The translations under genes were made by a program, and so were the position numbers. From Candidatus Undinarchaeales archaeon (GTDB taxonomy: Archaea; SpSt-1190; JASMDC01), in the NCBI GenBank assembly GCA_030753015.1, contig JASMDC010000002.1:32001-96000 (forward strand): a DNA stretch of 64,000 nucleotides, given 5' to 3'. Below, one piece after another: positions 10,664 to 41,791 of the stretch (the stretch's first letter is position 1; each line of letters opens with the position of its first letter). Below the pieces are notes generated by a model. The model ran no database searches. It was not told the DNA's origin and saw only the letters and a list, made by a program, of their open reading frames with translations.

Positions 10664-11089
10664 GTGGTGAAGAGTAGGCTCCGGGCCAGGAACCTCGTCA
10701 AACGTATCAACGTTGGCCACAAGGTGGAGGCGGAGAAGCGCTCGTACCTACCAACCCTCCGCGAGGTCCTCCGGACCCTCCTCGAGGTGAAACGCAAGAT
10801 CCGCGCCACGACCGTGAGGACCATGAACGAGAAGCGCTTGGTGGACCTCATCACCCTTCTTCAGAACCAGGCCGAGAGGCTTGTCCACTTCAAGCACGAT
10901 CCCGATTGTGGCGACGACGTGAACAAAGCGCTCGACCATATCCATACCTGTGTGCGGGACATAACCCTCAAGGACACCTTCCGCGCCGCACGAGAGGTGG
11001 ACCTTGCGATCAAGACTATCGCGGACGCCATCGCCATGCTGGAAATAGCGGAATGGAAGCTCGAATCAACCGCCAACGAGGAACTGTAG
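10664..11089 (+). CDS. Hypothetical helical protein
   Basis: GTG lies ~24 nt after TTTTAAAT (10633-40), suggesting a leaderless start. Basic N-terminus, helical-bundle-like C-terminus. Overlaps the next gene. Confidence 0.55.
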   Translation: MVKSRLRARNLVKRINVGHKVEAEKRSYLPTLREVLRTLLEVKRKIRATTVRTMNEKRLVDLITLLQNQAERLVHFKHDPDCGDDVNKALDHIHTCVRDITLKDTFRAAREVDLAIKTIADAIAMLEIAEWKLESTANEEL

Positions 11090-18167: not shown

Positions 18168-19257
18168 GATCAAGCGGTCCGCAGAGATCGCCCTGGAGAT
18201 GGTAGAGGAGCACGATGATCACAAGCGGAGCCATGGAACATCGGACAAGATGTTCGCGTTCTTCGTAGGAGGGATCATGATCCTCTCTGCTGTGGCCCTG
18301 GGATTCAATTACTTCAGCACGTTCGATAGCGGCGGTGGTAGTGGAGGCCGGGAAGGAGCGCCCGAAGGAGGCCGTTTCCTCTTCGACTGGGATCTGGTGC
18401 CCGGCGAACACTCACCCCAGCTCCGCACGGTCCTCGTGGATGTCTTCGGGGTCACCTTCGCTTCGGAGCCTTCAGTTTTGAAGAGCAAGGATGGTCTGAC
18501 GATCACCTATAGTGATGGGAGCACGACAAGCACCCTCACCCTGGAAGCGGACCAAGAGCTCGTCTCCCTGAACCTCCAGGACGGTACGGAGTACTTGTTC
18601 AAGCTCGTTGAGGACGGGGAGGGTCGTGCTGTGTATGCCACAAGCGAGCGGATCACGCGCTCTCAGGACTATGAGATCGACCTGACCAAGTTCCTTGATA
18701 CTGAAGGCGATTCGCCACCTGAGGAGGCCGAGGCCTATTTCGTGCCTGCGACGATCAAGGGTCGTCTCCCGAGCCTCGTGTTCTTCGGCACCATGGGTGA
18801 GAATACGACCCTCACGCGCCAGGAGGTCATCGTGCGGGTACGTGGTGTGAGGGGTGTTGCCAACGCTACTGAGGCACCTGCCGAGAAGGAGGAGGTCCTT
18901 CATCTCCAGCTCTTCCTCGACCTCGAACATATCCTGGACCAGAACCTCACTGCGAAGCTCGCGGGACAGTTGGAAGTTCTCGGAAAAGAGCTTGCTCTCG
19001 AGACACCAGCAGTATACCAGCCATCGTTCGCTGAGCTGGAAACCGACAAGGTGAACATGACCGTGGGCGGAGAGGGCAAGGTGATCACCTTACGAAACAA
19101 GCTCATCTACAGCATGCTCACACCACCGGTCGAGGAGAACGCTACCGTGCAGCTCATGCTCCGGGGTAAGGTCGTGGGGAGTCGCCCGCACATCCTCACC
19201 GACGGCCGAGAGGACATCATGGGTTTCCAGCAGGCATTCACCCTCTCGCTCGGTTGA
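18151..19257 (+). CDS. Hypothetical single-pass membrane protein
   Basis: ATG at 18151 with GGAGGTG upstream. Basic N-terminus, TM segment FAFFVGGIMILSAVALGF, and an LFDWDLVPG-type module. Confidence 0.75.
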   Translation: MVRKRKIKRSAEIALEMVEEHDDHKRSHGTSDKMFAFFVGGIMILSAVALGFNYFSTFDSGGGSGGREGAPEGGRFLFDWDLVPGEHSPQLRTVLVDVFGVTFASEPSVLKSKDGLTITYSDGSTTSTLTLEADQELVSLNLQDGTEYLFKLVEDGEGRAVYATSERITRSQDYEIDLTKFLDTEGDSPPEEAEAYFVPATIKGRLPSLVFFGTMGENTTLTRQEVIVRVRGVRGVANATEAPAEKEEVLHLQLFLDLEHILDQNLTAKLAGQLEVLGKELALETPAVYQPSFAELETDKVNMTVGGEGKVITLRNKLIYSMLTPPVEENATVQLMLRGKVVGSRPHILTDGREDIMGFQQAFTLSLG

Positions 19258-19272
19258 CGGCCCCTCCATCTG

Positions 19273-19287
19273 GGAAAGGTATAAATA
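19273..19287 (+). promoter_or_regulatory. BRE-TATA promoter of GCS2 paralog 1
   Basis: GGAAAG-GTATAAATA about 45 nt upstream of the start. Confidence 0.65.
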
Positions 19288-19329
19288 GCGCCGAGTGAGC
19301 GAAACCCCGGCAGTAGGGGACTGTCATCT

Positions 19330-20397
19330 GTGATCCTTAACGAGGGGCATTCCGTTGGGCTCGAGAAGGAGTTCTACGTCGTCGGCGCCGACAACAACAC
19401 TTACGAACAGGCCATCGTGAAGGACAGCGTAATCCCCCGCATGAAGGCGGAGCTGGGAGCCTACGACGAGTCCTGGGGTCCAAAGTGCTACATCGACGTC
19501 ACGGGTCCCCTTGAGGTCGTCACACGGCCTTGCTCGGACCTGCGCCAGCTCTCCGATGATATTACCACGGCCTACCGCATCGCGCAGGAGGAATCCGACG
19601 ACCGAGGCCTCTACACACTGGGTATGGGCTCACGTCCAGGCAAGCCCAGCGACCAGGCAGGGCTCCACGTGCACGTGGGCTTCAAGGACGAGGCCGAGGC
19701 CGAGTACGTGTTCAACGAGCTACAGAAGCACGTACCGGACATCATGGCCCTTTCGGCCAACTCACCGTCGCGGTTCGGAGGGGTTAAGGACACGCGAGCG
19801 AGTGGCGGGTACTACGGTCACAAGTTCTCTCCGTACTCTGACACGGGCCGCACCTCGGTCATCTACAAGCGTAGCAACACCCTGGAGGTGCGGTGCATGG
19901 ACTCCCAGGGGACGCCGGAGGAGGACGTGGCCATCGCCGCGTACATATTCGGTATCGCCGAGAAGGCCAAGGAGGACCACGCTAACGGTGTCGAACAGGA
20001 TACTGTCGGGAATGAGGGGCCCAAGAACTTCAAGCACGCTGTCAAGAAGGGCATGGAGGCCACCTTCAAGATCGATGACGAGAAGGTCCCGGCGTACCGC
20101 GTGGTCGAGGACACCTTCGTCGACATCCGCCACTACCTGGAGCGGTACGACTGCCCCGATGAGGTCATGGACGTCCTTGAGGGGAAGGTCAAGGAACGTC
20201 GCTCGGGGGCTGACGACATCCTGGACATCTACCACGAGACCGGCTATAGCAGCATATGGACCGGGATTAAGGACTTCTTCACGCTTCACCGGGGCCACGA
20301 CGAACTCTACGATCGGCTCGCACATAGAGGGCGTAGCGATGACGAGACCACCGTCGATGTCCCAGATGCAGACCTGCTACTCGCAAGAGCCGCATAA
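19330..20397 (+). CDS. Carboxylate-amine ligase, glutamate--cysteine ligase family 2 (GCS2/YbdK fold), paralog 1
   Basis: GLEKEF, LEVVTRPC, GLHVHVG, ALSANSP, LEVRCMD and RSGAD motifs. Confidence 0.88.
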   Translation: MILNEGHSVGLEKEFYVVGADNNTYEQAIVKDSVIPRMKAELGAYDESWGPKCYIDVTGPLEVVTRPCSDLRQLSDDITTAYRIAQEESDDRGLYTLGMGSRPGKPSDQAGLHVHVGFKDEAEAEYVFNELQKHVPDIMALSANSPSRFGGVKDTRASGGYYGHKFSPYSDTGRTSVIYKRSNTLEVRCMDSQGTPEEDVAIAAYIFGIAEKAKEDHANGVEQDTVGNEGPKNFKHAVKKGMEATFKIDDEKVPAYRVVEDTFVDIRHYLERYDCPDEVMDVLEGKVKERRSGADDILDIYHETGYSSIWTGIKDFFTLHRGHDELYDRLAHRGRSDDETTVDVPDADLLLARAA

Positions 20398-20455
20398 TAC
20401 GGCCCATTGTTGCGTTCTATTGTAGTATGGAATGGACTATTTCGCGACCGTTATA

Positions 20456-20470
20456 AGAAATGTATAAATA
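20456..20470 (+). promoter_or_regulatory. BRE-TATA promoter of GCS2 paralog 2
   Basis: AGAAAT-GTATAAATA upstream of ATG 20504. Confidence 0.65.
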
Positions 20471-20503
20471 CCACATCGTGCGCCGCCCCCGCACAGTAAC
20501 GAC

Positions 20504-21625
20504 ATGACAATCGTCAACGAAGGTCATTCGGTTGGGCTCGAGAAAGAGTTCTATGTTGTGGACGGGAGCAACCAGACCTACCAACAGTACACTATCGATA
20601 CAATCGTCAAGGAACGGATGCAAAATGAGATGAAAGCATACGATTCCGATGTAGGACCCAAGTGCTATGTCGATGCATCCGGTCCGTTTGAGATCACGAC
20701 CCGTCCGTGTACAGACCTTCAGCAACTTTCCGATGATATCACAACGACCTACAGGTTCGCCAAAGAAGAGTCGGAGAAACAAGGTCTCTATGCTCTCGGA
20801 ATGGGCGGACGGCCCGGAGCTCCAGACGATGCGGCAGGGCTGCACGTGCATGTCGGTTATGCGAATGAGGGCGAAGCCGACTACGTGTTCCACGAGCTCC
20901 AGAAGCACGTACCGGACATCATCGCGCTCTCGGCCAACTCACCGTCACGGGACGGGATGGTCAAATGCCTGCGGCAGTACGGCAATCCGATAAAGCACCT
21001 CTTCGACTTCCTGGGTGCAGGAGATACGCTCTTCTACGGTCATACGTTCTCACCGTTCGAGAAGACGGGCCGTTCCTCTGTCATCTACAAACGGGACGAC
21101 TCGAACACCGTCGAGGTCCGCTGCATGGACACCCAGGGAACCCCCGAGGAGGACACGGCCGTCGCAGCCTACATTTTCGGCATCGCCGAGAAGGCGAAAG
21201 AGGACTTCAATAACGGTGTTGAACAGGTGGGTATCGGTAAAGAGGAGAAACGCAACTTCAAGCGTGCGGTCCGTAAGGGGATGGAGGCGACCTTCAGAGT
21301 GGATGGGAAGAAGGTGCCAGTATCCCAGGTCGTCGCAGCGACACTCAAGGAGATCCAACCTTACCTGGAGCAGTACGATTGTCCTGATGAGGTCATCGAT
21401 GTGCTCAATGAGCGCGTCGCAACCAAACGCTGCGGTGCTGATGACATAATGGACATCTATCGCGAGGAGGGGGTCGGCGGCTTCTGGGGCAGTCTCACAA
21501 GACCGTTCCTTCTCTCGTCCAAGCGGGAAAGGCTCATCAAGCATCTCGGCTACCGCGACCGGTTCGAGGAAGAGCAGGAAAGACAAGATGATGATCCCTC
21601 TTCCATGGTAGCTTCTCCGACGTAA
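20504..21625 (+). CDS. GCS2-family carboxylate-amine ligase, paralog 2
   Basis: Same motif set: GLEKEF, GLHVHVG, ALSANSP, VEVRCMD. Confidence 0.88.
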   Translation: MTIVNEGHSVGLEKEFYVVDGSNQTYQQYTIDTIVKERMQNEMKAYDSDVGPKCYVDASGPFEITTRPCTDLQQLSDDITTTYRFAKEESEKQGLYALGMGGRPGAPDDAAGLHVHVGYANEGEADYVFHELQKHVPDIIALSANSPSRDGMVKCLRQYGNPIKHLFDFLGAGDTLFYGHTFSPFEKTGRSSVIYKRDDSNTVEVRCMDTQGTPEEDTAVAAYIFGIAEKAKEDFNNGVEQVGIGKEEKRNFKRAVRKGMEATFRVDGKKVPVSQVVAATLKEIQPYLEQYDCPDEVIDVLNERVATKRCGADDIMDIYREEGVGGFWGSLTRPFLLSSKRERLIKHLGYRDRFEEEQERQDDDPSSMVASPT

Positions 21626-21654
21626 AGGACGTCCGCTGCCCTTTTTTCGTAATG

Positions 21655-21688
21655 TTTATATAGGACCGGGCCCGCAACCACTTGCGGG
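21655..21688 (+). promoter_or_regulatory. TATA box plus CCCGCAA-N4-TTGCGGG palindrome, GCS2 paralog 3
   Basis: TTTATATA at 21655-62; inverted repeat at 21671-88. Confidence 0.55.
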
Positions 21689-21711
21689 TAACAACAGGGG
21701 AAACGGGTACT

Positions 21712-22833
21712 ATGGAGGATTTCCTAGAAACAGGCCATAGTGTAGGTCTTGAAAAGGAGTTCTACGTCGTCGACGGGAACAACGGGATGACCAACGACAC
21801 CTACAATCTGGTGCACGACATCGGCGATCGTATGGAAAAAGAACTGGGGGCCTATGACAGCAACTGGGGCCCGAAGTGCTATGAGGACCTCTCCGGCCCT
21901 CTGGAGGTCACCACCCGCCCCTGCAAGGATTTGCGCCAGCTGACCAAGGACATCACGACGTCATATAAGATCGCCCAGGAGGAAGCAGAGAATAACGGCC
22001 TCTACGCTCTGGGGATGGGAAATCGACCAGGCAAGAACGACGACCATGCGGGACTTCACGTTCATGTGGGATTCAAGGACGAGGGGGAGGCGGAGTACGT
22101 GTTCCACGCTCTTCAGAAGCATGTCCCCGACATCATGGCGCTGTCCGCGAACTCGCCCACCAACTATGGCGCTTTCAAGGACATACGCCAGGTCGGTGGC
22201 CTCTTCACACAGCTGGTAGAGAACGTGCTCGCGGTGCCCACCCTCTGGGGGCACAATTTCAGCAAGTACGGCCATACGAGCCGCCGCTCTGTCATCTACA
22301 TGCGGGAAAACACCGTAGAAGTGCGGTGCATGGACTCGCAGGGATCGGGGGAAGAGGACGCGGCCATCGGCGCTTACATATTCGGTATCGCCGAGAAAGC
22401 CAAGGATGACTACGCCAACGGTGTCCCTATGGCGGAGGTCGGACGCTGGGAAGAGAAGAACTTCACACGCTCTCTTGTCAAGGGCATGGAAGCGACCTTC
22501 AAGGTAGACGGCGAGAAGGTCAAGGCCTATCAGGTCGTGGACGACACTTTCGAGGAGATCATGCCGTTTCTCAAGCAGTACAAGTGCCCCAAGAAGGTCC
22601 TCGACGTGCTCGAATCCAAGATAGAAGGCCGGCGCTCTGGCGCGGACGACATCCTCGATATCTACAGGGAGGAGCTCCCTCAGGGCTTCCTGGCGCGGCT
22701 CATCGCTCCATTCAGGCGAAAGGAAGGCCAGAAGGAACAGCTCATCAAACACCTTGCATACCGCGACGAGTTTAAGGAAGAGGTTGAGCTCGAGGATGCT
22801 TTGCCGTGGCAGCCTATGCTCGCAGCAGCATGA
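21712..22833 (+). CDS. GCS2-family carboxylate-amine ligase, paralog 3
   Basis: Same motif set; start MEDFLETGHSVG chosen by alignment with the paralogs. Confidence 0.88.
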   Translation: MEDFLETGHSVGLEKEFYVVDGNNGMTNDTYNLVHDIGDRMEKELGAYDSNWGPKCYEDLSGPLEVTTRPCKDLRQLTKDITTSYKIAQEEAENNGLYALGMGNRPGKNDDHAGLHVHVGFKDEGEAEYVFHALQKHVPDIMALSANSPTNYGAFKDIRQVGGLFTQLVENVLAVPTLWGHNFSKYGHTSRRSVIYMRENTVEVRCMDSQGSGEEDAAIGAYIFGIAEKAKDDYANGVPMAEVGRWEEKNFTRSLVKGMEATFKVDGEKVKAYQVVDDTFEEIMPFLKQYKCPKKVLDVLESKIEGRRSGADDILDIYREELPQGFLARLIAPFRRKEGQKEQLIKHLAYRDEFKEEVELEDALPWQPMLAAA

Positions 22834-22892
22834 TCGGACCTCTCGAACGGTCGTTCCGAATCCTTCCGTCAACTGTTGGCTGAAACCGCACA

Positions 22893-22914
22893 CCGCAAAC
22901 GCAACGTTTATATA
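22893..22914 (+). promoter_or_regulatory. Promoter of the GCS2 paralog 4-5-6 operon
   Basis: CCGCAAACGCAACG-TTTATATA upstream of ATG 22948. Confidence 0.6.
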
Positions 22915-22947
22915 GAGGCCAGAGCAGCACCACTCACCAGTAGCAAC

Positions 22948-24012
22948 ATGGAGATCGTGAACGAGGGTCACTCGGTAGGGCTCGAGAAGGAGTTCTACAT
23001 TGTGAACCACGGAAGCAACGGTAATCTTCACCTTGGGGCAGAGATGGGTATCGCATCCGGTATCGGGAACAGAATGCGTGAGGAGTTGGGTGCCTACGAT
23101 GACGAGGTAGGTCCCAAAGCTTACCTCGATGCATCCGGTCCCATGGAGGTCGTTACCCGTCCCTGCTCGGACCTTCACCAGCTCACAAATGATATCACGA
23201 CCGCCTACGACATCGCCCAGGAAGTAGTGGAAGCGCATGGTAAGTACGCCCTGGGGATGGGGACGCGACCTGGGGCGCCGGACGATAAGGCCGGGCTCCA
23301 CGTTCATGTGGGCTACGGCGACGAGGCAGAGGCGGAATACGTCTTCACCGTGCTCAAGCATCACGTGCCCGAGATCATGGCACTATCAGCGAACTCGCCC
23401 AACAAGGACGGCACTATCAAGGATATGCGTGCCGCCAACCGTTCGTACGGCCAACGCTATTCCCCCTTCAGTACGACCAGCAACGAATCCGTCATCAAGA
23501 AGCGTGACAATACCCTGGAGGTGCGGTGCATGGACACCCAGGGGACAGCAGAAGAGGACGCAGCGATCGCTGCATACATCCTAGGCATCGCCGAGAAGGC
23601 CAAGATCGATTACGCCAACGGAGAGGGCGTCTCGGACCGGTTCGGCGACGAAATCAAGAACCATGAGCAGGCGATAAAGGACGGTATGGCCGCGACGTTT
23701 ACGTACGGTGACGAGACGCGGTCGGTACAGGAAGTGGCCCAGGACACATTCGTCGCTATCCTTCCCTACCTTCGTCAATACGATTGTCCTGACGAAGTGG
23801 TGGGCATATTGGCTGACAAGATCGTCCGCGGACGCTCGGGTGCCGATGATATCCTAGACATCTACGCCGAGCACCGATCCCACGGCTTCATGCAAACACT
23901 TGCATCTCCTTTCACGTTCTGGAGCAGGAGGAAAGCGCTCTACAACGACCTTGCTCATCAGCGTGAGTGGAAGGCGCAGGAACGCGAGCGGGCGGACAGC
24001 GGAGGTGCCTGA
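22948..24012 (+). CDS. GCS2-family carboxylate-amine ligase, paralog 4
   Basis: Same motif set; start MEIVNEGHSVG. Confidence 0.88.
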   Translation: MEIVNEGHSVGLEKEFYIVNHGSNGNLHLGAEMGIASGIGNRMREELGAYDDEVGPKAYLDASGPMEVVTRPCSDLHQLTNDITTAYDIAQEVVEAHGKYALGMGTRPGAPDDKAGLHVHVGYGDEAEAEYVFTVLKHHVPEIMALSANSPNKDGTIKDMRAANRSYGQRYSPFSTTSNESVIKKRDNTLEVRCMDTQGTAEEDAAIAAYILGIAEKAKIDYANGEGVSDRFGDEIKNHEQAIKDGMAATFTYGDETRSVQEVAQDTFVAILPYLRQYDCPDEVVGILADKIVRGRSGADDILDIYAEHRSHGFMQTLASPFTFWSRRKALYNDLAHQREWKAQERERADSGGA

Positions 24013-24015
24013 GAG

Positions 24016-25065
24016 ATGATCTCCGAAATCCTCAACGACGGCCATTCGGTGGGGCTGGAGAAGGAGTTCTACGTGGTGAACGGCCATGGTAGCAATCGCA
24101 GAGGCTACGAGATCGTCCCGGCCGTCGAGGAGCGCATGCGCGAGGAAATGGGCGTCTACGACTCGGTCGTCGGCCCGAAAGCATATAACGATCCCACCGG
24201 TCCTGTTGAAGTTACCACTCGTCCCTGCACGGACCTGCAACAGCTCACCGACGATGTCACGACCGCCTACCGCATCGCGCAGGAGGAGGCTGACGCACGT
24301 GGCTGGTACGCCCTCGGGATGGGCACCCGTCCTGGAAAGCCCTACGACATGGCAGGACTGCACGTCCACATCGGTTTCGCCGACAAGGAGGAGGCCCGCT
24401 ACGTGTTCCACGCACTCCAGGCGCACGTTCCGGACATCATGGCACTGTCGACCAATTCTCCATCGAATGATGGCAAGGTCAAGGACATACGCATGGACGC
24501 ACGCGGCCTAGATGGCCTCTTCATGATCAGGTTCGGTCACCAGTTCGATCCGTTCGAAGACACATCACGCGACTCGGTCATCTACGTACGCGAGAACACC
24601 CTGGAGCTGAGATGCATGGATAGCCAGGGGAGCGCCGTGGAGGACGCAGCCATCGCCGCCTACATCCTCGGTATCGCCGAGAAGGCCAAGGAGGACTATA
24701 CCAACAATGCCTCCATACCGGACGTGCCAGCAGAAGGGCCCGAGAACTTCCAGAAGGCCATCGAGGACGGGATGACCGCGACGTTCACCCACGGGGGCAC
24801 GGAGATCCCTGCGCACCAGGTCGTGGCCGATACGCTCGCTGAGGTCAGACCATACCTGGAGCAATATAATTGCCCTGAGAGCGTCATAGCCTCTCTGGAG
24901 GACAAGGTCGAGAACAAGCGGTCCGGAGCCGACGATATCCTCGACATCTACCAGGAGACGGCACCCAAAGGATTCAAGGAGCGTGTTGGCGCGTTCTTCC
25001 ACCCGTGGCGCACGAAGGAGCGGCTCATCGACCGGCTCTCCCATCGGGACGGCGGGGGGTGCTGA
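24016..25065 (+). CDS. GCS2-family carboxylate-amine ligase, paralog 5
   Basis: GLEKEF, GLHVHIG, ALSTNSP and LELRCMD; 3 nt after the paralog 4 stop. Confidence 0.88.
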   Translation: MISEILNDGHSVGLEKEFYVVNGHGSNRRGYEIVPAVEERMREEMGVYDSVVGPKAYNDPTGPVEVTTRPCTDLQQLTDDVTTAYRIAQEEADARGWYALGMGTRPGKPYDMAGLHVHIGFADKEEARYVFHALQAHVPDIMALSTNSPSNDGKVKDIRMDARGLDGLFMIRFGHQFDPFEDTSRDSVIYVRENTLELRCMDSQGSAVEDAAIAAYILGIAEKAKEDYTNNASIPDVPAEGPENFQKAIEDGMTATFTHGGTEIPAHQVVADTLAEVRPYLEQYNCPESVIASLEDKVENKRSGADDILDIYQETAPKGFKERVGAFFHPWRTKERLIDRLSHRDGGGC

Positions 25066-25069
25066 GAGA

Positions 25070-26140
25070 ATGGCCGAGATCCTTAACGAAGGCCACTCGG
25101 TGGGGCTGGAAAAGGAGTTCTACGTCGTTGATGGTACGGGGAGCACGTACCGTCAGTCGATCCTCGAGGGCCACATCGTGGACAGGATGCAGGCGGAGAT
25201 GGACGCCTACGACGTCAGTGTCGGCCCCAAGTGCTACGAGGACGGTTCGGGTCCACTGGAGGTCGTTACACGGCCCTGCACGAATCTACAACAGCTCACC
25301 GACGACGTCACCACGGCCTACCGCATCGCCCAAGAGGAGGCCGATACTCTCAACTGCTACGCCCTGGGAATGGGTATCCGTCCCGGCCAGTCTAAAGATA
25401 AAGCAGGCCTTCATGTCCACGTCGGATATGCCGATGAGGGGGAGGCGCGTCATGTCTTCTACACGCTCCAGCGCCATGTACCGGACATCCTGGCGCTCTC
25501 GGCCAACTCCCCGATCCGGAGCGGGAAGGTCAAGGACGTCCGTCTGGTCAAGGGCTCTTACGGCCACGAGATCTCGCCCTACTCTAGCACATCCAACAGT
25601 TCTGTGATCCAGAAGCGATCCGGGACCATCGAGGTGCGGTGCATGGACAGCCAGGGATCGGGCGAGGAGGACGCGGCCATCGCCGCGTACATATTCGGGA
25701 TCGCCGAGAAGGCCAAGGATGAGTACCATGGACTCGACGAGGTACCTCCCGAGGCGGATGTCATGTACGATGTCAGCAGCTCGTACGAGGTATTGCAGAA
25801 AGAGCTGGTGAAGAACAGGGACAGGGCCATCAAGCAGGGCATGACAGCCGTTTTCAAGACTGACGGTGAAGAGGTGCCAGCGTATCAGGTAGCAGCCGAC
25901 ACCCTTGAGGCGATCAAACCTTTCCTTGAACGCTACGACTGTCCCGCGGACGTCCTTGCCATCCTTGAGGACAAGGTGGAGCGCCGTCGATCGGGAGCGG
26001 ACGACGTGCTGGACATCTACCGCGAAGTAGAGCAAGAGAAGGGACTGGACACGTGGTGGCAGGGAGTGAAGCGGTTCTTCCGCAAAGACGACGGCCTGTT
26101 CGGGCCCGACCTGTACGACCGCATCGCTCACCGCGATTAG
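25070..26140 (+). CDS. GCS2-family carboxylate-amine ligase, paralog 6
   Basis: Same motif set; start MAEILNEGHSVG, 4 nt after the paralog 5 stop. Confidence 0.88.
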   Translation: MAEILNEGHSVGLEKEFYVVDGTGSTYRQSILEGHIVDRMQAEMDAYDVSVGPKCYEDGSGPLEVVTRPCTNLQQLTDDVTTAYRIAQEEADTLNCYALGMGIRPGQSKDKAGLHVHVGYADEGEARHVFYTLQRHVPDILALSANSPIRSGKVKDVRLVKGSYGHEISPYSSTSNSSVIQKRSGTIEVRCMDSQGSGEEDAAIAAYIFGIAEKAKDEYHGLDEVPPEADVMYDVSSSYEVLQKELVKNRDRAIKQGMTAVFKTDGEEVPAYQVAADTLEAIKPFLERYDCPADVLAILEDKVERRRSGADDVLDIYREVEQEKGLDTWWQGVKRFFRKDDGLFGPDLYDRIAHRD

Positions 26141-26163
26141 GTACCTTTCACACCCTCGCTTGC

Positions 26164-26186
26164 CCGCAAGGGAACGTTTATTAAGC
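26164..26186 (+). promoter_or_regulatory. Promoter of nitrilase-fold gene 1
   Basis: CCGCAAGGGAACGTTTATTAAGC; near-identical copy at 27020-27042. Confidence 0.65.
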
Positions 26187-26223
26187 ATCCCTAAGATGTC
26201 GTGGATTAGGAGCGTAGTGATCG

Positions 26224-26982
26224 ATGTACGAGCTCGAGCCTGGTGATGAACGGCCAGACCACATCACGGTAGGCCTCATCGATGCCGATGTCCCGTTCAC
26301 CAGCAGCGATACCCGGGATGAGACCGTCATGGACCACTATCAGGATGCCATCGGAGCGGCCTTGGAGGCCGAGCCCGACATCCTTGTTGGTGCTGAGTAC
26401 GTATTCTTCCCCTATCAGCCACTCACCCGCGAGGAGCGGGACGAACGGTTCAACGTGATGCGTCAGCTATCGACGGAGCATCCGGACACCCTTCTCATGC
26501 CCGGTACCTACATCTGGCAGGAGCAGGGACATCTGCACAATACACTACCTGTGTTCCACAGGGGTGAGCTGGTGTTCACCTATGAGAAGCAGAATCCGGC
26601 TAATGCCGAGCGCTGGATGGAGAGCGACCATAACTTGGCATACACTGCCGAGAAGAGCGAGGGAGTTCTCGAGTACCAGGGCCTTTCCGTGGGGATGGAG
26701 ATCTGCTACGACCATACGGCACACACACTGCGGGACAAGGGTGTCAGGGACCTCGATCTTCAGGTGTTGGTAGCCAACGGCAAGGATTTCATCGACACGG
26801 CCACCATGGTAAGAGAAGGAGGGTACCATCTTCGCGTCGATGGCAGCGACAGCTCTTCGTACGATAGCGTCGAAGTGCACAAGTGTGTCGGTCCTTACAA
26901 GTACACGACCGTCGGACCTGAACGTATGAGCGAGCTCCCTCATGACATGAAGCTCAACCTCTACGAGCTGGACATGGCGTGA
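26224..26982 (+). CDS. Carbon-nitrogen hydrolase (nitrilase superfamily), copy 1
   Basis: Glu-Lys-Cys triad: VGAEY, YEKQ, MEICYDH; also LHNT. Confidence 0.82.
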   Translation: MYELEPGDERPDHITVGLIDADVPFTSSDTRDETVMDHYQDAIGAALEAEPDILVGAEYVFFPYQPLTREERDERFNVMRQLSTEHPDTLLMPGTYIWQEQGHLHNTLPVFHRGELVFTYEKQNPANAERWMESDHNLAYTAEKSEGVLEYQGLSVGMEICYDHTAHTLRDKGVRDLDLQVLVANGKDFIDTATMVREGGYHLRVDGSDSSSYDSVEVHKCVGPYKYTTVGPERMSELPHDMKLNLYELDMA

Positions 26983-27019
26983 TATGCGCCAGGTCCCCCC
27001 GATAGCACGGGCTAACGGT

Positions 27020-27042
27020 CCGCAAGGGAAGGTTTATCAAGC
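27020..27042 (+). promoter_or_regulatory. Promoter of nitrilase-fold gene 2
   Basis: CCGCAAGGGAAGGTTTATCAAGC. Confidence 0.65.
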
Positions 27043-27080
27043 GGACGTTGCGGCCCGTTCGTTGGAGGACGTGACGGACA

Positions 27081-27902
27081 GTGTACTCACTTGAAGATAC
27101 GACGAGCAATGATCGACCTGACCACATCACCGTCGGGCTCATCCAGGGCGACGTACCGTTCGACCGCTACAGTCCACGCGACGAGTCCTTCATGGACGCG
27201 TACCAGGACACGATCTCCACGGCCCTGGAGGCCAATCCGGACGTCCTCGTAGGCTCCGAGTACTCCTTCTTCCCCCACGTACCCCTCACTCGCGAGGAGA
27301 AGGACGAGCGACTTGAGCAGATGCGCGAGATCTCAGAGGAACACCCTGACACCCTCCTCCTACCGGGCACCTACCTCTGGCAGGAGGGCGGCAAGCTCCA
27401 CAATACCCTCCCCGTGTTCCACAAGGGCGAGATTGTCTACTCCTACGACAAGCAGAACTCGGCGAACGGGGAGAACTGGGTCGCCGAGCAGCATGGTCTT
27501 GAATATGAGGCGGAGAAGAGCCGCGGTGTGTTCGAGCACCGGGGGCTCTCCATGGGGCTGGAGATCTGCTACGATCACTCGTGCTACGAACTGTCGGGCA
27601 AGGATGTCGAGGACCTGGACCTGCAGTTCCTGGTAGCGAACGGGAAGAACTTCATCGAGAGCGCTGCAGTGGTCAGGTCCGGTGGCTACCACGTCCGCTG
27701 TGATGGCGACGAGGACGGGTACGGTGGCGTTGAGGTGAACCGGCGGGTCGGCAGCGATGAGTTCGACGAGGTGTCCACCGGGCAGGAACGTGACCTTCCC
27801 AACGACATGAAGCTGGACCTGTACGACCTGGACATGCGGCGGCCCGGATCCGGCGAGGATGGCTTCTCCGTGGCTGGTTTTATCTCCCGCATTCTCCACT
27901 GA
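27081..27902 (+). CDS. Carbon-nitrogen hydrolase (nitrilase superfamily), copy 2
   Basis: VGSEY, YDKQ and LEICYDH; clear paralog of copy 1, with an extra C-terminal tail. Confidence 0.82.
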   Translation: MYSLEDTTSNDRPDHITVGLIQGDVPFDRYSPRDESFMDAYQDTISTALEANPDVLVGSEYSFFPHVPLTREEKDERLEQMREISEEHPDTLLLPGTYLWQEGGKLHNTLPVFHKGEIVYSYDKQNSANGENWVAEQHGLEYEAEKSRGVFEHRGLSMGLEICYDHSCYELSGKDVEDLDLQFLVANGKNFIESAAVVRSGGYHVRCDGDEDGYGGVEVNRRVGSDEFDEVSTGQERDLPNDMKLDLYDLDMRRPGSGEDGFSVAGFISRILH

Positions 27903-27949
27903 GCTGCCCGGCCCCAAGCCTTTTATTGTTGCTTTGTCCTACTATTTCG

Positions 27950-28234
27950 ATGGTCACACTGCACCGTATCATAGGCCTGATGCTTCTCCTCGCCCTTGTA
28001 GCGGGGTGCCTCTCATCCGGACCTTCCGGAGGGGCCTCCACAACGAACCTCCCATCATACTACCAGCAGCTTGCGGACCAATGCAAGGGCTCCAGCTGTT
28101 GCCTGTCCTCCGTTGATTCGATGTACAGGATGAACGCGACCCTATCTCCGCCCAACGGGTGTCCCCCGGGCACACAGGGGAACATGCTCAGATGTGAGGA
28201 CTCATATAAATGGTGCGAACCTGCGGCCCCGTAA
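27950..28234 (+). CDS. Small Cys-rich putative lipoprotein
   Basis: Hydrophobic signal ending in LVAG-C, six further Cys (C-x4-CC...C...C...WC), and TTTTATT about 25 nt upstream. Confidence 0.7.
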   Translation: MVTLHRIIGLMLLLALVAGCLSSGPSGGASTTNLPSYYQQLADQCKGSSCCLSSVDSMYRMNATLSPPNGCPPGTQGNMLRCEDSYKWCEPAAP

Positions 28235-28240
28235 GGGGAG

Positions 28241-29503
28241 TTATGTCTTGACCGGCACCGGCTGCCCGCCCGGCAGGTCCTCGGCCTTCCCCGTGTCCTG
28301 TACGTAGCTGTAGAGCGCCCCCTCAAGCTCCTCGACCGTGGCGACCTGTTCGAGCTCTTGGGACAGCTGCTTGGCCCGACGGTTCCAGAACGGCTCGTGC
28401 TGTTCGATGTACTCGCGCACGATACCGGCGATCTCCTGTACCGGGACCTCCTCCATCGGAGCGAAAAGCGACTCCATGGTGCCCGCCTTGATCGCACCGT
28501 CCTCGTCACCGGCGATGCCGTACCTGCCGGCCACGCGCTCGTAGGTGCGTAGGGACGAGTCCATCTTGCCGAAGGGCAGGTCGGAGCCGAAGAGGATGCG
28601 GCCCTCGTACTCCTGGTGCCGCGAAAGGATGATGTCAGTGAGGCCGAGGGTGTACTTGCCGACGTCCTCTGGCTTCTCCACCTCGTTGTCCTCCAGGGAG
28701 AAGGGCATGGTGATGGAGAGGTCGAGGTACACGTTCTCGTGGGATGCCGCGACATCGGCCGCCTGGGTCACTGCAGCGGTGCGTGCCTTCGCCGATACTA
28801 CCCGTGAGCTCCCGCCGCAGCCGGAGTGGCCGATGATGATGGTGGTGTCCGGGGCCTTCTCGGCGAGCTTGCCCATACGGTAGGGCTCGCACATGATCAC
28901 GTCCTCCGGATTGTCCTGGTCGATGAGGTCGGGACGGGCCTGGGAGTGGAGGAGCACGGGCATGCCCAGGGCACCTGCCACACGCGCCACGGTAGCGGAC
29001 TCGTCCGAGTCGGCGGCGAACTTCTGCGCCCGGGGATGGAGCTTGAGCCCCTCGGCGCCCTCCAGACGGCACCGCACGACCTCGTACACAGCAGCGTACG
29101 GTCCTTCCGATCCTGTGGTGCCGTTGGGGTCCACCCGACAGAACGGGTTGAACCGGCCTTCGTACTCGTTGGCTGCCCACAGCACACGGTCGTTTGCATA
29201 GTGGAATGGGATGAGGACACCGTTGGGATCCGGCACGTTCCGGTCGCCCTCGTTGAAGGGGAACACGTTACACTGGCTCTGCGGTCCGTAGCCCGCGTCC
29301 ATAGCCTCAATGATCTCCTCGGGTGTCAGGCTCCGCTGTGCCTTTTTCTCCCCGACATGGTCGTACCCTAGGCTGGCCTGGACCTCGGCCATGTTCTCCC
29401 ATGTGTACGGTGCGGTCAGTGTCTCGATGCCGTCCGGGGCGTCCCACCCCATGTGGACGTGACAGTCGAGGATCTCCCTGTCCGTGTCGCCGTACTCGAT
29501 CAT
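28241..29503 (-). CDS. Metal-dependent amidohydrolase (TIM barrel, amidohydro_2-like)
   Basis: DCHVH, GLKLHP, LLHS, IGHSG and FGSDLPF motifs. Confidence 0.88.
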   Translation of the reverse strand: MIEYGDTDREILDCHVHMGWDAPDGIETLTAPYTWENMAEVQASLGYDHVGEKKAQRSLTPEEIIEAMDAGYGPQSQCNVFPFNEGDRNVPDPNGVLIPFHYANDRVLWAANEYEGRFNPFCRVDPNGTTGSEGPYAAVYEVVRCRLEGAEGLKLHPRAQKFAADSDESATVARVAGALGMPVLLHSQARPDLIDQDNPEDVIMCEPYRMGKLAEKAPDTTIIIGHSGCGGSSRVVSAKARTAAVTQAADVAASHENVYLDLSITMPFSLEDNEVEKPEDVGKYTLGLTDIILSRHQEYEGRILFGSDLPFGKMDSSLRTYERVAGRYGIAGDEDGAIKAGTMESLFAPMEEVPVQEIAGIVREYIEQHEPFWNRRAKQLSQELEQVATVEELEGALYSYVQDTGKAEDLPGGQPVPVKT

Positions 29504-29505
29504 GA

Positions 29506-30792
29506 TTACACCAGATACTCCATATTGGTAGATTTCTCGATGACATAGGATGCCAGGTCCTCGCCGTCGTTCACGGCATCGATCTGGACGTCGGCGCCGG
29601 AGCGGCCACTGTACACGCGCGCTTCCAGACGCTCGCGTACATCGTCCGGAATCTTGAGGTCATCGAGGACCGGCTTGATCTTCTCGTATGTCTCCTTGAT
29701 AGCGTCCTTAGCTGCGACCTCTACATCCTGGCCGTCCTTGGAATAGGTGATCGTGCCGTCCATGCCACCGTAGCCCACCTCGTCGATGTTCTTCTTGAGG
29801 ACATCGTTGTCCATCGCGATATCGTACGCGGGGCGGTGATCGGCCAGCCATGTGTCCGATGCGTCCAGCTGTGAGCTGAGCTGGGCGTACTGCTGGTCGC
29901 CGTCGGTCTCCTTACCGAAGAACTTGCGGATGCCCCGGCCCATGGCCGAGAAGATACCGGCATGGTAGACCTGTTCCAGCTGATCCTGCAGGTCGTTGCG
30001 CTCATGCTCTTTGTTGGCGAGTTCGGTCCAGTCGTAGTTACCGCTGGCCATTTCCTTCTTGGCGAACTCAGCGATGCCCCATATGAACGCGGCCACCGCG
30101 ACGTCCTCCTCGGCAGTGAGCTGGGCGTCGGGGCAGCGCACCTCCACGGTCCCCTTGAGCCGGTCGGAGTCCTTCTCTCCGGCGATGACGACCCCGCGGC
30201 CGTCCCAGCGCTCGCGCTTGAAGCTCAGGACCTCGGAGTGGGCCCGGTCCTCGTCGCCGTACACCACCGGATCGTTCGGGATGGTGCGGCCGTACTGCGT
30301 ACCGCCCATATTGGTGGAGTATATGCGGGCGTCCTTGCACCACTTACCCAGTGTGCCCTTCTTTGGCGAGTTGGAGGCGAGGGCGATGATCTCGGGGAGG
30401 TGGGCCCGCAGGGCCTTGGTGACGAACAGCGCCTCACGGTCGTCGGCAGCGCCGACGTGGGTGTGCATGGCCATGTAGCCGCCCTTGTCCGGATGGCGTG
30501 CTGCGGTCATGATCTTGTAGCCGCGGCCGGTGGCCTCGTCACGTACCTTCGTGACCATCTCTTTCATTTCGGTGTTCAGGTCAGTTAGGTTTTCGTAGGG
30601 GTGCGAGTTGATCTCGATACCCCAAACGCTGAATCCGAGCGCTGACGGGTAGTCGTGGTTGATACGGTCGTCGCTGCACGCGTTCTCGATCGAAGTGCAG
30701 TCAACGGGATTGCCATTGGGATCGACGATGATGAACTCCTTCTCCATGCCGATGGTGTGGCCGTCGTTCAGCTTGCCCCACGACATGATCAT
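29506..30792 (-). CDS. GCS2-family carboxylate-amine ligase, divergent paralog 7 with long helical insert
   Basis: GMEKEF, IEINSHP, MHTHVG, ALASNSP, VEVRCPD and RSGAD motifs. Confidence 0.85.
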   Translation of the reverse strand: MIMSWGKLNDGHTIGMEKEFIIVDPNGNPVDCTSIENACSDDRINHDYPSALGFSVWGIEINSHPYENLTDLNTEMKEMVTKVRDEATGRGYKIMTAARHPDKGGYMAMHTHVGAADDREALFVTKALRAHLPEIIALASNSPKKGTLGKWCKDARIYSTNMGGTQYGRTIPNDPVVYGDEDRAHSEVLSFKRERWDGRGVVIAGEKDSDRLKGTVEVRCPDAQLTAEEDVAVAAFIWGIAEFAKKEMASGNYDWTELANKEHERNDLQDQLEQVYHAGIFSAMGRGIRKFFGKETDGDQQYAQLSSQLDASDTWLADHRPAYDIAMDNDVLKKNIDEVGYGGMDGTITYSKDGQDVEVAAKDAIKETYEKIKPVLDDLKIPDDVRERLEARVYSGRSGADVQIDAVNDGEDLASYVIEKSTNMEYLV

Positions 30793-31781
30793 TCCCCTCC
30801 GTGGAACTCTTTCTCCAGCTCCACCGAATACTCGACGATCTGGCGCACTGCGTCCCTGCCATGGCCGGTGCTGCGCTCGAGATTGTAGAATCCACCAGGG
30901 GCGGAGTTAAGTTCCAGCACGATGTAGTCGACGTTACCGTCCTTATCGTATCGCTCCAGGATGTCCACACCGGAGAAGTGCAGGCCGTCACCCATGGCCT
31001 TCACGGCCTCGACCGCCAGCTCTGCGACCTTCTGGTATTCATTATCAGGGACCTTCTCTCCATGGCCACCGTTGTGGATGTTAGTGATCCAGTCGTTGTT
31101 GACACGATACATGGCGCCGATGCACTCGTCGCCCACCACGTATGCCCGGATGTCCCGAAAGCTCTGGTGCGGCCAGTACTTGAACACGTCCTCCTGGACG
31201 ATGTCCGTGCCCAGATTCACCTGCTTGAGCGCCTCTTCGGCGGTGTCCACCTTGCGGATGCCCTTGCCGCCGAAACCATTGGAGGGCTTGAGCACGTAGG
31301 GGCCCTCGACACGTTCGCAGAACTCACGGATATCATCGTAAGAATGAGGGATGACCGTCTCGGCCACGGGCACATCGGCCTGCTCCAGCAGCTGCTGGGT
31401 GCGCACCTTGCTCCCAGTGACCGGGTACATGTCCGGATCGTTGAGAACAAGAGTGCCGTTGGCCTCGAACTCGCGCAGGATGCCCGAGGGGGGCCCGGCC
31501 ATGAAGTTGATAATGACGTCGGGATCGCCGCCCAGCTCCTTGCGGATCTTCTGCTTGACGTGGCCGCCGCCGCTGTAGTGCTTGGGGAACTTCGCGTGCG
31601 CGCCGCGTACGCCGTCCATGGAGTTGACCGCTTCATCGAAGTACCGTCCCAAGGAGGAGTTCATGGAGTTGTCGATATTGTCATGATAGAGCACCTTGAT
31701 GGACTCGTCATCGAGTTCGAACCCGGTGAGCTTGTCCAACAGGTCGCGCCAACCGCTTATCGTGGCCACTTCCTGTGACAT
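30789..31781 (-). CDS. RimK/LysX-family ATP-grasp peptide ligase
   Basis: VLKPSNGFGGKGI, IVQE, DIRAYVVG, WITNIHNGG, GVDIL and ELNSAP. ATGA overlap with GCS2 paralog 7. Start uncertain (31781 or 31850). Confidence 0.88.
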   Translation of the reverse strand: MSQEVATISGWRDLLDKLTGFELDDESIKVLYHDNIDNSMNSSLGRYFDEAVNSMDGVRGAHAKFPKHYSGGGHVKQKIRKELGGDPDVIINFMAGPPSGILREFEANGTLVLNDPDMYPVTGSKVRTQQLLEQADVPVAETVIPHSYDDIREFCERVEGPYVLKPSNGFGGKGIRKVDTAEEALKQVNLGTDIVQEDVFKYWPHQSFRDIRAYVVGDECIGAMYRVNNDWITNIHNGGHGEKVPDNEYQKVAELAVEAVKAMGDGLHFSGVDILERYDKDGNVDYIVLELNSAPGGFYNLERSTGHGRDAVRQIVEYSVELEKEFHGGE

Positions 31782-31975
31782 CGATGAGCTGATGGGCACG
31801 TTAGTTTGCGCATAGGTATTCCCTATTCCTTTGGATGTAAAGAGCTGCACGTCCCGGTGTTTTTAAAGATTTCGAAACCGTGCGGTAGTAACACTTAATA
31901 TATCTCCCCCCGAAACACTGACGGCGGCCAATCCCGGCCATAGTCTTTTATATCTCGGCTTGGTCTTGAAAGGCC

Positions 31976-32692
31976 GTGCGCATCTCCATCGTCATACCGG
32001 CACATGACGAGGAAGGAGTGCTTGAGGAGATCGTCGAGGCCGTGATAGCGGGTACCTCGGAGCTCGACCGTGAGGTCGTGGTCGTGGACGACGTGTCCTC
32101 GGACCGGACCGGTGCCATCGCTGACGAGCTTGCGGTCCGGTACCCCGAGGTCAGAGTTCTCCATCGAACGAAGGACAACTCATTCGGTAATGCCCTACGA
32201 CATGGGCTGGCGAACGCAGAGGGAGAGGTTGTTATCCCCGTGATGGCCGACATGTGCGACGATGTGGCTACCATCTCCCGCATGGCTAAAGTAGCAGAGG
32301 AAACAGGAGTGGCCTTTGTGGTGGGCTCCCGGTACATGCCGGGTGGAGGCACTGTGGACCAGCCGAGGCTCAAGGGGTTGTTCTCACACACCTACTCGAG
32401 GATCTACTCGTTGATGTCGGGACACGCCATCACCGATATAACCAACGCCTTCAAGGCCTACCGGCGCGACGCTATCGAAGGGCTAGATCTTGATTCGGAC
32501 TGGTTCGATATCTCGGTGGAGATCCCGTCACGCATCCTTTTCGAGCGTAGTGGCGACTTCCGTGAGGTGCCGACGATCTGGACTGGACGCGCTGTCGGTG
32601 AGAGCAAGTTCAAGTTGTTCACCATGGGTAAGAATTACGTGCGCTGGCTCATCTTCGTCCTCCGTCATCGGTTCAGTGGTCGGTCGCGATGA
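31976..32692 (+). CDS. Glycosyltransferase family 2 (dolichol-phosphate mannose synthase-like)
   Basis: SIVIPAHDE, VVDDVSSDRT, MADM and VGSRY motifs. Confidence 0.88.
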   Translation: MRISIVIPAHDEEGVLEEIVEAVIAGTSELDREVVVVDDVSSDRTGAIADELAVRYPEVRVLHRTKDNSFGNALRHGLANAEGEVVIPVMADMCDDVATISRMAKVAEETGVAFVVGSRYMPGGGTVDQPRLKGLFSHTYSRIYSLMSGHAITDITNAFKAYRRDAIEGLDLDSDWFDISVEIPSRILFERSGDFREVPTIWTGRAVGESKFKLFTMGKNYVRWLIFVLRHRFSGRSR

Positions 32693-41674: not shown

Positions 41675-41791
41675 TGTTGGCGACGGTCCGGGCTTCCCAC
41701 CATCACGGCAGTACCACACGGAACGCGGGAGGACTTTACTTCCGGGTTCGAGATGGGACCGGGTGTTACCCCTCCGCTATGGCCGCCAACG
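41675..41791 (-). rRNA. rrf: 5S ribosomal RNA
   Basis: Minus strand reads GTTGGCGGCCATAGCGGAGGGGTAACACCCGGTCCCATCTCGAACCCGGAAGTAAAG...GGGAAGCCCGGACCGTCGCCAAC, with a paired terminal stem. Confidence 0.95.

Follow-up and report, generated by a model that had tools for sequence, protein, structure and literature searches.

A lineage-specific gene cluster with a six-copy array of GCS2-fold ligases and linked hydrolases in a Candidatus Undinarchaeales genome

The window analyzed here is a stretch of 64,000 nucleotides from a Candidatus Undinarchaeales archaeon (contig JASMDC010000002.1, positions 32,001 to 96,000 of the forward strand); all positions below are those of the window unless another contig is named. 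According to the open reading frame (ORF) listing and Pfam scans, positions 19330-31850 comprise 12 consecutive genes, 11 of which encode enzymes: ligases of the GCS2 family, a RimK-type ATP-grasp ligase, two CN_hydrolases, and an Amidohydro_2 metal-dependent hydrolase. Six of the GCS2 genes form a tandem array that represents a new, very rare subfamily in a six-copy arrangement without precedent, and its partner hydrolases are equally rare. The cluster is chromosomally fixed and lineage-specific, and the linkage of the array with the CN_hydrolases and RimK is confined to a genus-level clade of seawater metagenomes. We tentatively assign it, with a confidence just short of an even chance, to small-molecule amide or gamma-glutamyl-type peptide metabolism performed by substrate-diversified ligases.

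The plus-strand row starts with the six tandem GCS2 genes, which are followed by two paralogous CN_hydrolase genes and a gene for a small Cys-rich protein of secreted type. The minus-strand row is convergent and contains, in the order of transcription, the RimK-type ATP-grasp, the seventh GCS2 (GCS2-7), and Amidohydro_2. Intergenic spacers across the cluster are 1-114 nt long; with the inferred starts, the gap between paralogs 4 and 5 is 3 nt and that between paralogs 5 and 6 is 1 nt. The RimK and GCS2-7 ORFs overlap by 4 nt, and Amidohydro_2 starts 2 nt past the end of GCS2-7, so that the RimK-GCS2-7-Amidohydro_2 operon is predicted to be translationally coupled. Catalytic signatures were complete in all 11 enzymes. 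The original prediction, made from the DNA letters, had listed 11 of 12 genes with C-N bond-forming or C-N bond-breaking folds, which is borne out by the ORFs and Pfam matches; the architecture that it described, with six tandem GCS2 and two nitrilase-fold genes converging on a RimK-GCS2-amidohydrolase operon, also holds, and the catalytic motifs it recognized correspond to invariant residues in the ligases, CN_hydrolases, and Amidohydro_2.

Linkage of the genes in relatives, on which that prediction had staked its interpretation, was found both in a genome of the same genus (G001) and on related metagenome contigs. In G001 the whole cluster is syntenic, with the same gene order, and the housekeeping flanks are kept. 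Upstream, these flanks comprise genes for both PheRS subunits (alpha and beta), TrpRS, and glycerol-1-phosphate dehydrogenase, and downstream, genes for a family 2 glycosyltransferase (GT2), TruA, SRP54, and FtsY. No integrase, transposase, or tRNA gene was found at the cluster borders. Since the cluster is placed in conserved housekeeping synteny, it is not a mobile island, and the word "island" used for it at first is not appropriate.

All seven ligases exceeded the gathering score of the Pfam GCS2 model (PF04107, cut-off 21), with 36-46.9 bits in the whole set and 41.9-46.9 bits in the array. The GhExE signature (G-[LM]-E-K-E) and residues E63, H114, E204, and R206 (numbering of gene 2) are invariant in all seven, and in an alignment of 54 sequences including haloarchaeal GshA the invariant set consisted of GhExE, E63, H114, E204, R206, and D209. 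GhExE is described in the available excerpts of PMC2588565 as the Mg/ATP signature of carboxylate-amine ligases. The phylogenetic and profile comparison proposed with the original prediction placed all seven ligases far from the curated GshA and YbdK models: none of the NCBIfam models for these enzymes (TIGR02050, NF010039-45) was reached by any of them, the scores being 65.8-71.9 bits against cut-offs of 176-437 (for TIGR02050, 65.8-71.8 against 176.4). A single ligase gave a weak match to Gln-synt_C, at 19.5 bits and under the cut-off. The AlphaFold2 (AF2) model of paralog 2 had a predicted local distance difference test (pLDDT) value of 86.1 and a predicted template modeling score (pTM) of 0.88. 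The best Foldseek match of this model was YbdK 1r8g (E 2.6e-15, template modeling (TM) score 0.66-0.69), followed by a plant glutamate-cysteine ligase and then by PafA/Dop (TM ~0.5; E 3.4e-10 to 1e-8), and a profile search of PDB found YbdK at E 3.7e-13.

The other array members are 55-62% identical to paralog 1, and GCS2-7 is 33% identical to it. At the DNA level, the six copies have a period of 1.05-1.24 kb and an identity of 65-78%, and this divergence indicates that the tandem array is old and has seen no recent gene conversion. The paralogs formed a monophyletic clade in a 44-row tree, with a Shimodaira-Hasegawa-like approximate likelihood ratio test (SH-aLRT) value of 99. This clade grouped weakly (SH-aLRT 79), among long branches, with GCS2-7 and rare metagenome relatives, and haloarchaeal GshA and other archaeal GCS2 genes were placed elsewhere. 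GCS2-7 could conceivably be the array's direct ancestor. The genome as a whole contains nine GCS2 genes, and the two outside the cluster are also under every NCBIfam cut-off. They are located at G000:C29:11482-12723 and G000:C23:42615-43880; one lies by two genes of the U32 peptidase family and the other between genes for a PfkB kinase and a beta-CASP RNase.

A word-based search of 5.8 billion proteins revealed 21 clusters with 48-92% identity to the array, after which identity dropped to 30% or less, mostly to haloarchaeal GshA; these were also the closest named proteins, at ~25% identity and E 1e-7 and weaker. With HMMER over 1.84 billion representatives, the subfamily collapsed to a single cluster (E 4.9e-154); the second-best match stood at 2.3e-43, and in all there were four at 1e-30 or better, 122 at 1e-10 or better, and 965 at 1e-3 or better. 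The nearest outside relatives of the array are metagenome clusters of 1-3 members. Among GTDB species representatives, the array was present in G001 alone; any match was seen in 6 of 41 genomes, the other four having single weak matches. A scan of genome contigs for the array returned one locus. A scan of metagenomes returned 17, one of which repeats the upstream gene and paralogs 1 and 2, and the other 16 are lone distant GCS2 genes. Metagenomes from seawater and other marine samples in 12 studies contained near-identical DNA, and the archaeon is widespread in seawater. A literature search, with supplementary tables outside its scope, found no account of such an array. As to the genome itself, its size is 3.85 Mb at 98.9% completeness and 5% contamination, and that of a relative from the same genus is 3.6 Mb, while their class-mates have only 0.6-1.2 Mb. 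With a genome 3-6 times larger than those of its class-mates, the organism could be a free-living deep branch or could be misplaced.

In a 30-row tree the array genes fell into six orthogroups of 4-6 members each, with SH-aLRT values of 99-100 for five and 89 for one; the tree also contained an extra divergent paralog, P0020, from a relative. Branch lengths were ~0.1-0.3 inside the orthogroups and ~0.9-1.1 between them, and each orthogroup was present in about four related genomes. Therefore, the duplications are older than the species sampled, and none of the copies has been lost. Ratios of nonsynonymous to synonymous substitution rates (dN/dS), calculated against G001, were 0.058-0.157 over the 11 enzymes and 0.087-0.157 for the six paralogs, and the flanking genes gave 0.191 (upstream membrane protein) and 0.087 (downstream GT2). 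Every gene of the cluster is under purifying selection.

Divergence between the paralogs is unevenly distributed. In paralog 2 numbering, 116 of 373 positions are invariant, and a further 105 are fixed within groups and differ between at least three groups. These group-specific positions concentrate at 21-40, 150-200, 241-275, and 323-347, and the catalytic strands are constant. The segment 150-200, located after the NSP motif, is an indel hot spot with low model confidence. A comparable pattern is described in excerpts of PMC5403932 for gamma-glutamyl-amine synthetases with a glutamine synthetase (GS) fold, whose sites for Glu, ATP, and metal are conserved, in contrast to a differing amine pocket. 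Since the core is invariant and the neighboring loops are fixed by group, we read the six paralogs as substrate-diversified.

The two CN_hydrolases exceeded the PF00795 gathering score, and residues E58, K122, and C161 are invariant in eight sequences of the family; judging by the motifs of the nitrilase superfamily, we take them to be its Glu-Lys-Cys triad. The Atlas model of CN_hydrolase 1 (pTM 0.89) aligned to CN_hydrolase clusters with TM scores of 0.72-0.85. The family consists of six clusters in all, every one from this clade. Its weak best matches were to glutamine-dependent NAD+ synthetase (NCBIfam E 3e-6 and 3.7e-5; PDB 5kha E 0.087). The spacers before CN_hydrolases 1 and 2 are 83 and 98 nt, and neither fusion nor translational coupling to the ligases was seen. 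The "two nitrilases" of the original prediction are thus members of the nitrilase superfamily, as proposed, but very divergent ones, and not nitrilases proper.

Amidohydro_2 retains D13, H15, H17, H156, H226, and D308 (the HxH...H...H...D metal ligands), which are invariant in six sequences, and carries a clade-specific insert of ~33 amino acids (aa) past the HxH motif. No sequence relative was found in PDB at E of 1 or better. The family assignment of this "amidohydrolase" stands, but since the family covers a broad range of metal hydrolases, amide cleavage is a predicted activity. For GCS2-7, the word-based search found at least one other cluster among the best 8000 candidates scored. The RimK protein was below the cut-offs of the following NCBIfam models (bits/cut-off): MptN 132.3/350, rimK_fam TIGR00768 129.9/143.4, LysX 111.6/275.6, CofF 71.8/300, and GshB 48.2/272. 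Its nearest PDB entry was the alpha-L-glutamate ligase 7qys (E 9.2e-18), S6 modification enzymes were also matched, and a GSH-S_ATP domain (PF02955) was recognized at E 9.6e-11.

Pairs of a GCS2-like ligase and Amidohydro_2 were found in other archaea as well. Relatives of Amidohydro_2 were present in 14 of the 151 archaeal genomes searched, and a GCS2-like gene was located within 3 kb in nine of the 14: two of the same genus, two of family f11, and five of the six of family f17. In the f17 genus, Amidohydro_2 occurred in all six genomes, with the ligase adjoining it in five. The f17 operon, which is conserved (L015 5628-9803, genome G029), encodes a TIGR00375 PHP-type metallohydrolase, a divergent GCS2-like ligase of 483 aa, an Amidohydro_2/TatD-like protein of 243 aa, and an FGase/poly-gamma-glutamate-hydrolase-like protein of 242 aa, and looks like an uncharacterized glutamate-amide pathway. 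In family f11 (L012 3114-8977, genome G023), a GCS2-like protein of 468 aa and Amidohydro_2 of 428 aa are encoded among two VWA-domain proteins and an uncharacterized 242-aa protein, which gives the pair a different setting. An Amidohydro_2 relative adjoins a true glutamine synthetase and the ammonium transporter AmtB in one further genome, and one metagenome contig carries genes for Orn/Lys/Arg decarboxylase, Amidohydro_2, GCS2, and Amidase side by side. From these neighborhoods, the GS-fold ligase and Amidohydro_2 appear to be a recurrent, metabolic-looking pair. RimK relatives were found in 64 of the 151 genomes (36% identity or less, in the C-terminal part alone) and were not co-located with such pairs. 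The search for the same neighborhood in other archaea, suggested at the outset, thus recovered the GCS2-Amidohydro_2 pair in two other families, but the array and the CN_hydrolases in this clade only.

Features of the cluster and adjacent sequences, with positions in the window
Feature	Position	Strand	Details
Upstream membrane-anchored protein, no assigned family	18151..19257 (ORF from 17998, likely start M52)	+	One predicted transmembrane helix in translation
TATA-box-like element GTATAAATA	19279..19287, second copy 20462-20470	+	51 nt upstream of GCS2-1; second upstream of GCS2-2
GCS2/YbdK-fold ligase paralog 1	19330..20397	+	PF04107 42.7 bits; orthogroup 4 rows; dN/dS 0.157
GCS2/YbdK-fold ligase paralog 2	20504..21625	+	PF04107 44.7 bits; the modeled paralog
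TATA-like element GTTTATATAG	21654-21663	+	Upstream of paralog 3
GCS2/YbdK-fold ligase paralog 3	21712..22833 (ORF from 21682)	+	PF04107 44.9 bits; start inferred from orthologs P0004, P0008
TATA-like element	22906-22915	+	Upstream of paralog 4
GCS2/YbdK-fold ligase paralog 4	22948..24012 (ORF from 22876)	+	PF04107 45.3 bits; start inferred from P0015
GCS2/YbdK-fold ligase paralog 5	24016..25065	+	PF04107 46.9 bits; dN/dS 0.139
GCS2/YbdK-fold ligase paralog 6	25067..26140 (ORF from 24983)	+	PF04107 41.9 bits; start inferred from orthologs P0013, P0014
TATA-like elements	26176-26185 and 27032-27041	+	Before CN_hydrolase 1 and CN_hydrolase 2
Divergent nitrilase-superfamily CN_hydrolase 1	26224..26982	+	PF00795 29.3 bits vs cut-off 23.2
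Divergent CN_hydrolase 2	27081..27902	+	PF00795 23.9 bits vs cut-off 23.2; 61% identical to enzyme 1
Small Cys-rich protein	27950..28234 (ORF from 27926)	+	Signal peptide and lipobox-like LVAGC (translation); between both gene rows
Amidohydro_2 metal-dependent hydrolase	28241..29503	-	PF04909 58 bits vs 26.4; dN/dS 0.058
Seventh GCS2-fold ligase (GCS2-7)	29506..30792	-	PF04107 36 bits; large insert ~75 aa
RimK-family ATP-grasp ligase	30789..31850	-	PF08443 78.4 bits vs 21; N-terminal ~120 aa unmatched

For three array genes the ORF extends upstream of the start listed. To judge from the lengths of orthologs, translation of paralogs 3, 4, and 6 probably begins near 21712, 22948, and 25067, and P0015 is identical to the C-terminal 354 aa of paralog 4. 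TATA-like elements precede paralogs 1-4 and both CN_hydrolases, 42-58 nt from the starts. The sequence GTATAAATA occurs twice in the window, both times in array spacers, against 0.04 expected; the motif was read from the same spacers, and the test is partly circular. The counts of the promoter-like motifs are likewise circular, because the motifs were taken from the spacers tested. A scan for sigma-70 promoters and terminators gave five promoter-like sites against 4.9 expected and is uninformative for an archaeon. The Rfam scan of the window revealed no RNA element in the cluster. One marine metatranscriptome yielded seven short contigs with at least 99% identity, which mapped to the upstream gene, to paralogs 1, 5, and 6, and to the junction of RimK and GCS2-7; the lack of contigs from other parts of the cluster is uninformative. 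A second RNA run (X24) was rejected as evidence of expression, since it contained just a chimeric fragment of 18-21 nt.

Among known systems, YbdK of E. coli (1r8g/1tt4) is the best match in both sequence and fold and has the GhExE, HxH, NSP, and ExR core motifs in common with the array, but the identity is ~20%, and the segment between NSP and ExR is shorter and variable in the array. YbdK is a single-copy gene whose product has weak gamma-Glu-Cys activity. Haloarchaeal GshA shares all core residues with the array; however, the array scored only 40-53 bits with NF010045 against a cut-off of 395 and forms a separate clade in the tree. Haloarchaea have a single copy of GshA, a characterized enzyme whose gene is not known to be linked with hydrolases. 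The operon resembles GshA plus GshB in that GCS2 is likewise paired with an ATP-grasp, the same two-fold logic that serves for a gamma-Glu-X-Y tripeptide. Unlike GshB, the ATP-grasp found here is nearer to the RimK, MptN, and LysX models, reaching none of them, and a hydrolase is co-transcribed with it. PafA/Dop belong to the same superfamily and have the GhExE signature, according to excerpts of PMC2588565, and they set a precedent for a ligase/hydrolase writer and eraser in one fold; the putative erasers of the cluster are of different folds. The glutaminase domain of NadE and the deaminated-glutathione amidase Nit1 probably share the CN_hydrolase fold, along with the predicted E-K-C triad, with CN_hydrolases 1 and 2 and were their weak best matches, at 20-26 bits against cut-offs of 355-479.

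The closest functional parallel comes from polyamine metabolism. The original prediction regarded a multi-copy expansion of ligases accompanied by hydrolases as unexplained, but Pseudomonas aeruginosa provides a precedent with its seven gamma-glutamylpolyamine synthetases PauA1-7, each having its own amine specificity, as excerpts of PMC5403932 describe. More generally, PauA, PuuA, and GlnA2-4 form sets of several GS-fold paralogs per genome, differing in amine specificity, that are paired with amide hydrolases (PMC5403932; see also PMC8998196, PMC6529630, and PMC8394153). The array is like these systems in having multiple GS-fold paralogs together with hydrolases, a likeness in the way of working and not a membership. 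The Pau and Puu ligases are of the Gln-synt_C (GlnA) type and those of the array of the GCS2 type, and the oxidase and aldehyde dehydrogenase steps of Pau/Puu have no counterpart in the cluster. Genes of the Pau/Puu type are dispersed and are not known to form one array, and hydrolysis in these pathways relies on a GATase-1 enzyme, in place of which the cluster has CN_hydrolases and Amidohydro_2.

In the proposed metabolic role, each array ligase would phosphorylate a carboxylate with ATP/Mg2+, and the acyl-phosphate would then be attacked by an amine. If GshA and GS are a guide, the carboxylate would most likely be the gamma-carboxylate of glutamate, and the six paralogs could work side by side, with related amines or amino acids as acceptors, as the PauA enzymes do. 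The CN_hydrolases could either cut the amides made by the ligases or supply amine substrates, and delivery of ammonia is another possible role. GCS2-7 and the RimK/GshB-type ATP-grasp may perform two successive ligations in the manner of gshA/gshB, to which the operon adds Amidohydro_2. Observed are the folds, the complete motifs, the purifying selection, the old paralogy, the linkage, and the rarity; in this scheme we infer which carboxylate and acceptors are used, what the hydrolases do, and that small molecules are the targets.

Several observations weigh against such a role. Canonical GshA was not recognized elsewhere in the genome, and therefore one member of the cluster could still be a gamma-Glu-Cys ligase. 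Ligation followed by plain hydrolysis would be a futile cycle, which leaves the role of the hydrolases unexplained. All characterized gamma-glutamyl-amine synthetases are of the GlnA type, whereas the array ligases are of the GCS2 type. The cluster contains no transporter, oxidase, dehydrogenase, or regulator gene that would define a catabolic route like Puu/Pau, and no oxidoreductase gene was found by Pfam in the region 17998-34181. The group-specific positions are assigned to the vicinity of the acceptor pocket by sequence position alone. The CN_hydrolases passed the PF00795 threshold only marginally, and the AF2 model of CN_hydrolase 1, built from an eight-sequence alignment, had a pLDDT of just 52.4. 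The metatranscriptome contigs are a weak hint that the cluster is transcribed and could be DNA carry-over. Finally, the co-linearity of the array and its near-identical promoter-like elements agree with a single multi-step pathway just as well as with enzymes acting in parallel.

Such a pathway could be a sequential assembly line, in which every one of the seven GCS2 ligases, and the ATP-grasp too, would extend a growing oligo-amide or peptide by one unit, as the Mur ligases or GshA followed by GshB do. As product, a defined peptide made independently of ribosomes, an oligo-gamma-glutamyl tail, a peptide of the envelope, or a compound resembling a siderophore is conceivable, and the hydrolases would trim or recycle it. 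The genes are co-linear, their order is shared with the sister species, none of the six orthogroups has been lost from the sampled genomes, similar promoter-like elements stand before genes 1-4 and both CN_hydrolases, both gene rows show tight predicted translational coupling, and the cluster has genes for membrane and secreted proteins and a glycosyltransferase on its flanks. However, the paralogs have diverged only moderately (55-62% identity), and enzymes recognizing intermediates of different length, such as the Mur ligases, usually diverge far more. The branching order of the paralogs in the tree does not match the gene order, and the cluster has no carrier, export, or cyclization gene. 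We consider an assembly line unlikely, although a credible competitor. Alternatively, the ligases could attach Glu or a peptide to proteins or peptides reversibly, like PafA and RimK, with the CN_hydrolases and the amidohydrolase acting as erasers like Dop. This agrees with the co-location of writer and eraser folds, with the presence of PafA/Dop among the Foldseek matches, and with the inclusion of protein C-terminal glutamylases (the S6 modification enzymes of PDB) in the RimK family. Tagging of protein, lipid, or cofactor targets, which the original prediction had put forward, nevertheless finds little in its favor in the gene content: spacers of 1-114 nt are too small for a Pup-like or LysW-like carrier gene, and none was found; no proteasome or AAA gene lies nearby; the fold is less similar to PafA/Dop than to YbdK; and the related GCS2-Amidohydro_2 contexts, with FGase-like, DHQase, GS/AmtB, amino-acid decarboxylase, and amidase genes, are metabolic-looking. 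The probability of a tagging system is therefore low in our estimation. A template-free, ribosome-independent system of amide assembly and editing, in which up to eight amide bonds would be written by seven GCS2 enzymes together with the ATP-grasp, on one oligo-amide or as tags on cellular targets, and then edited or erased by the three hydrolases, is a speculative proposal and is quite unlikely.

The weak NAD+ synthetase matches raise another option, namely that the CN_hydrolases are glutaminase subunits, comparable to the N-terminal domain of NAD+ synthetase, feeding ammonia to the GS-fold ligases, which would amidate carboxylates of one or more metabolites. The hydrolases do share a gene row with the ligases, and glutamine synthetase, itself of the GS fold, takes ammonia as an acceptor. 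But the matches are far under the cut-off (25.9 bits vs 479), there are two hydrolases for six ligases, and neither is fused or translationally coupled to them, so that glutamine-dependent amidation has only a slim chance. Slightly slimmer is the prospect that the six proteins form one mixed complex for a single reaction, as hetero-oligomeric or regulatory paralogs. An architecture of the co-expression type and the preservation of all six copies would suit such a complex, and GS-fold enzymes range from dimers to dodecamers; many carboxylate-amine ligases are dimeric, and heterodimers of paralogs were once proposed for PafA (excerpts of PMC2588565). However, every catalytic residue is kept in all six proteins, an unusual trait if they were structural or regulatory subunits, and the changes that set the groups apart are not confined to surface patches, since loops near the core carry indels. 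Tandem expansion of paralogs, a very narrow distribution, and the slightly lower GC content of part of the array (0.554-0.578 vs ~0.60 for the window) could also point to a defense or effector arsenal, as the original prediction had allowed, or to a horizontally acquired mobile island. This has hardly any credibility: none of 10 proteins matched PADLOC at E of 0.01 or better, all genes are under purifying selection (dN/dS 0.06-0.19), and the borders are free of mobility genes and surrounded by housekeeping genes that are kept in the sister genome.

Two further proteins adjoin the enzymes. The gene for the upstream membrane protein adjoins GCS2-1 in G001, as it does on the metagenome contig L021, and its membership in the system is uncertain; no Pfam or PADLOC family was found for the protein, and the Atlas search with residue 52 onward gave no usable match. 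The small Cys-rich protein likewise matched no Pfam or PADLOC family. Its G001 ortholog (L011 8006-8527, minus strand) has two tandem copies of the Cys-rich module (YYxQLxDQCKGSSCC...SYKWCEP). We regard this protein as a probable bystander.

Elsewhere in the window, the sole Rfam match was a 5S rRNA gene (41675-41790, minus strand, 82.2 bits). Two giant ORFs on the minus strand (55280-58894 and 58938-63971; 1204 and 1677 aa) gave sub-threshold Pfam hints of an Ig-like domain and VWA_4 and may encode surface proteins. Two B12-binding radical SAM proteins are encoded among translation genes (10906-12822, plus strand, and 42696-43883, minus strand), the former with a weak resemblance to the TIGR04013/MJ_1487 family.

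GCS2/YbdK ligases are widespread, and to our knowledge almost none of their substrates is known beyond those of gamma-Glu-Cys synthesis, EgtA, and Pup ligation. Definition of the products made by the cluster would assign a function to a new ligase subfamily and to the GCS2-Amidohydro_2 pair that recurs across several families of archaea. New metabolites of the gamma-glutamyl type, or a route by which nitrogen is salvaged from marine amines, could also come to light. With six paralogs having an identical catalytic core and different loops, the array is a natural experiment in the evolution of specificity. If the cluster did assemble and edit amides without a template, the use of GS-fold enzymes instead of non-ribosomal peptide synthetases or Mur ligases would be a new logic of biosynthesis or modification, so far seen in one marine archaeal clade.

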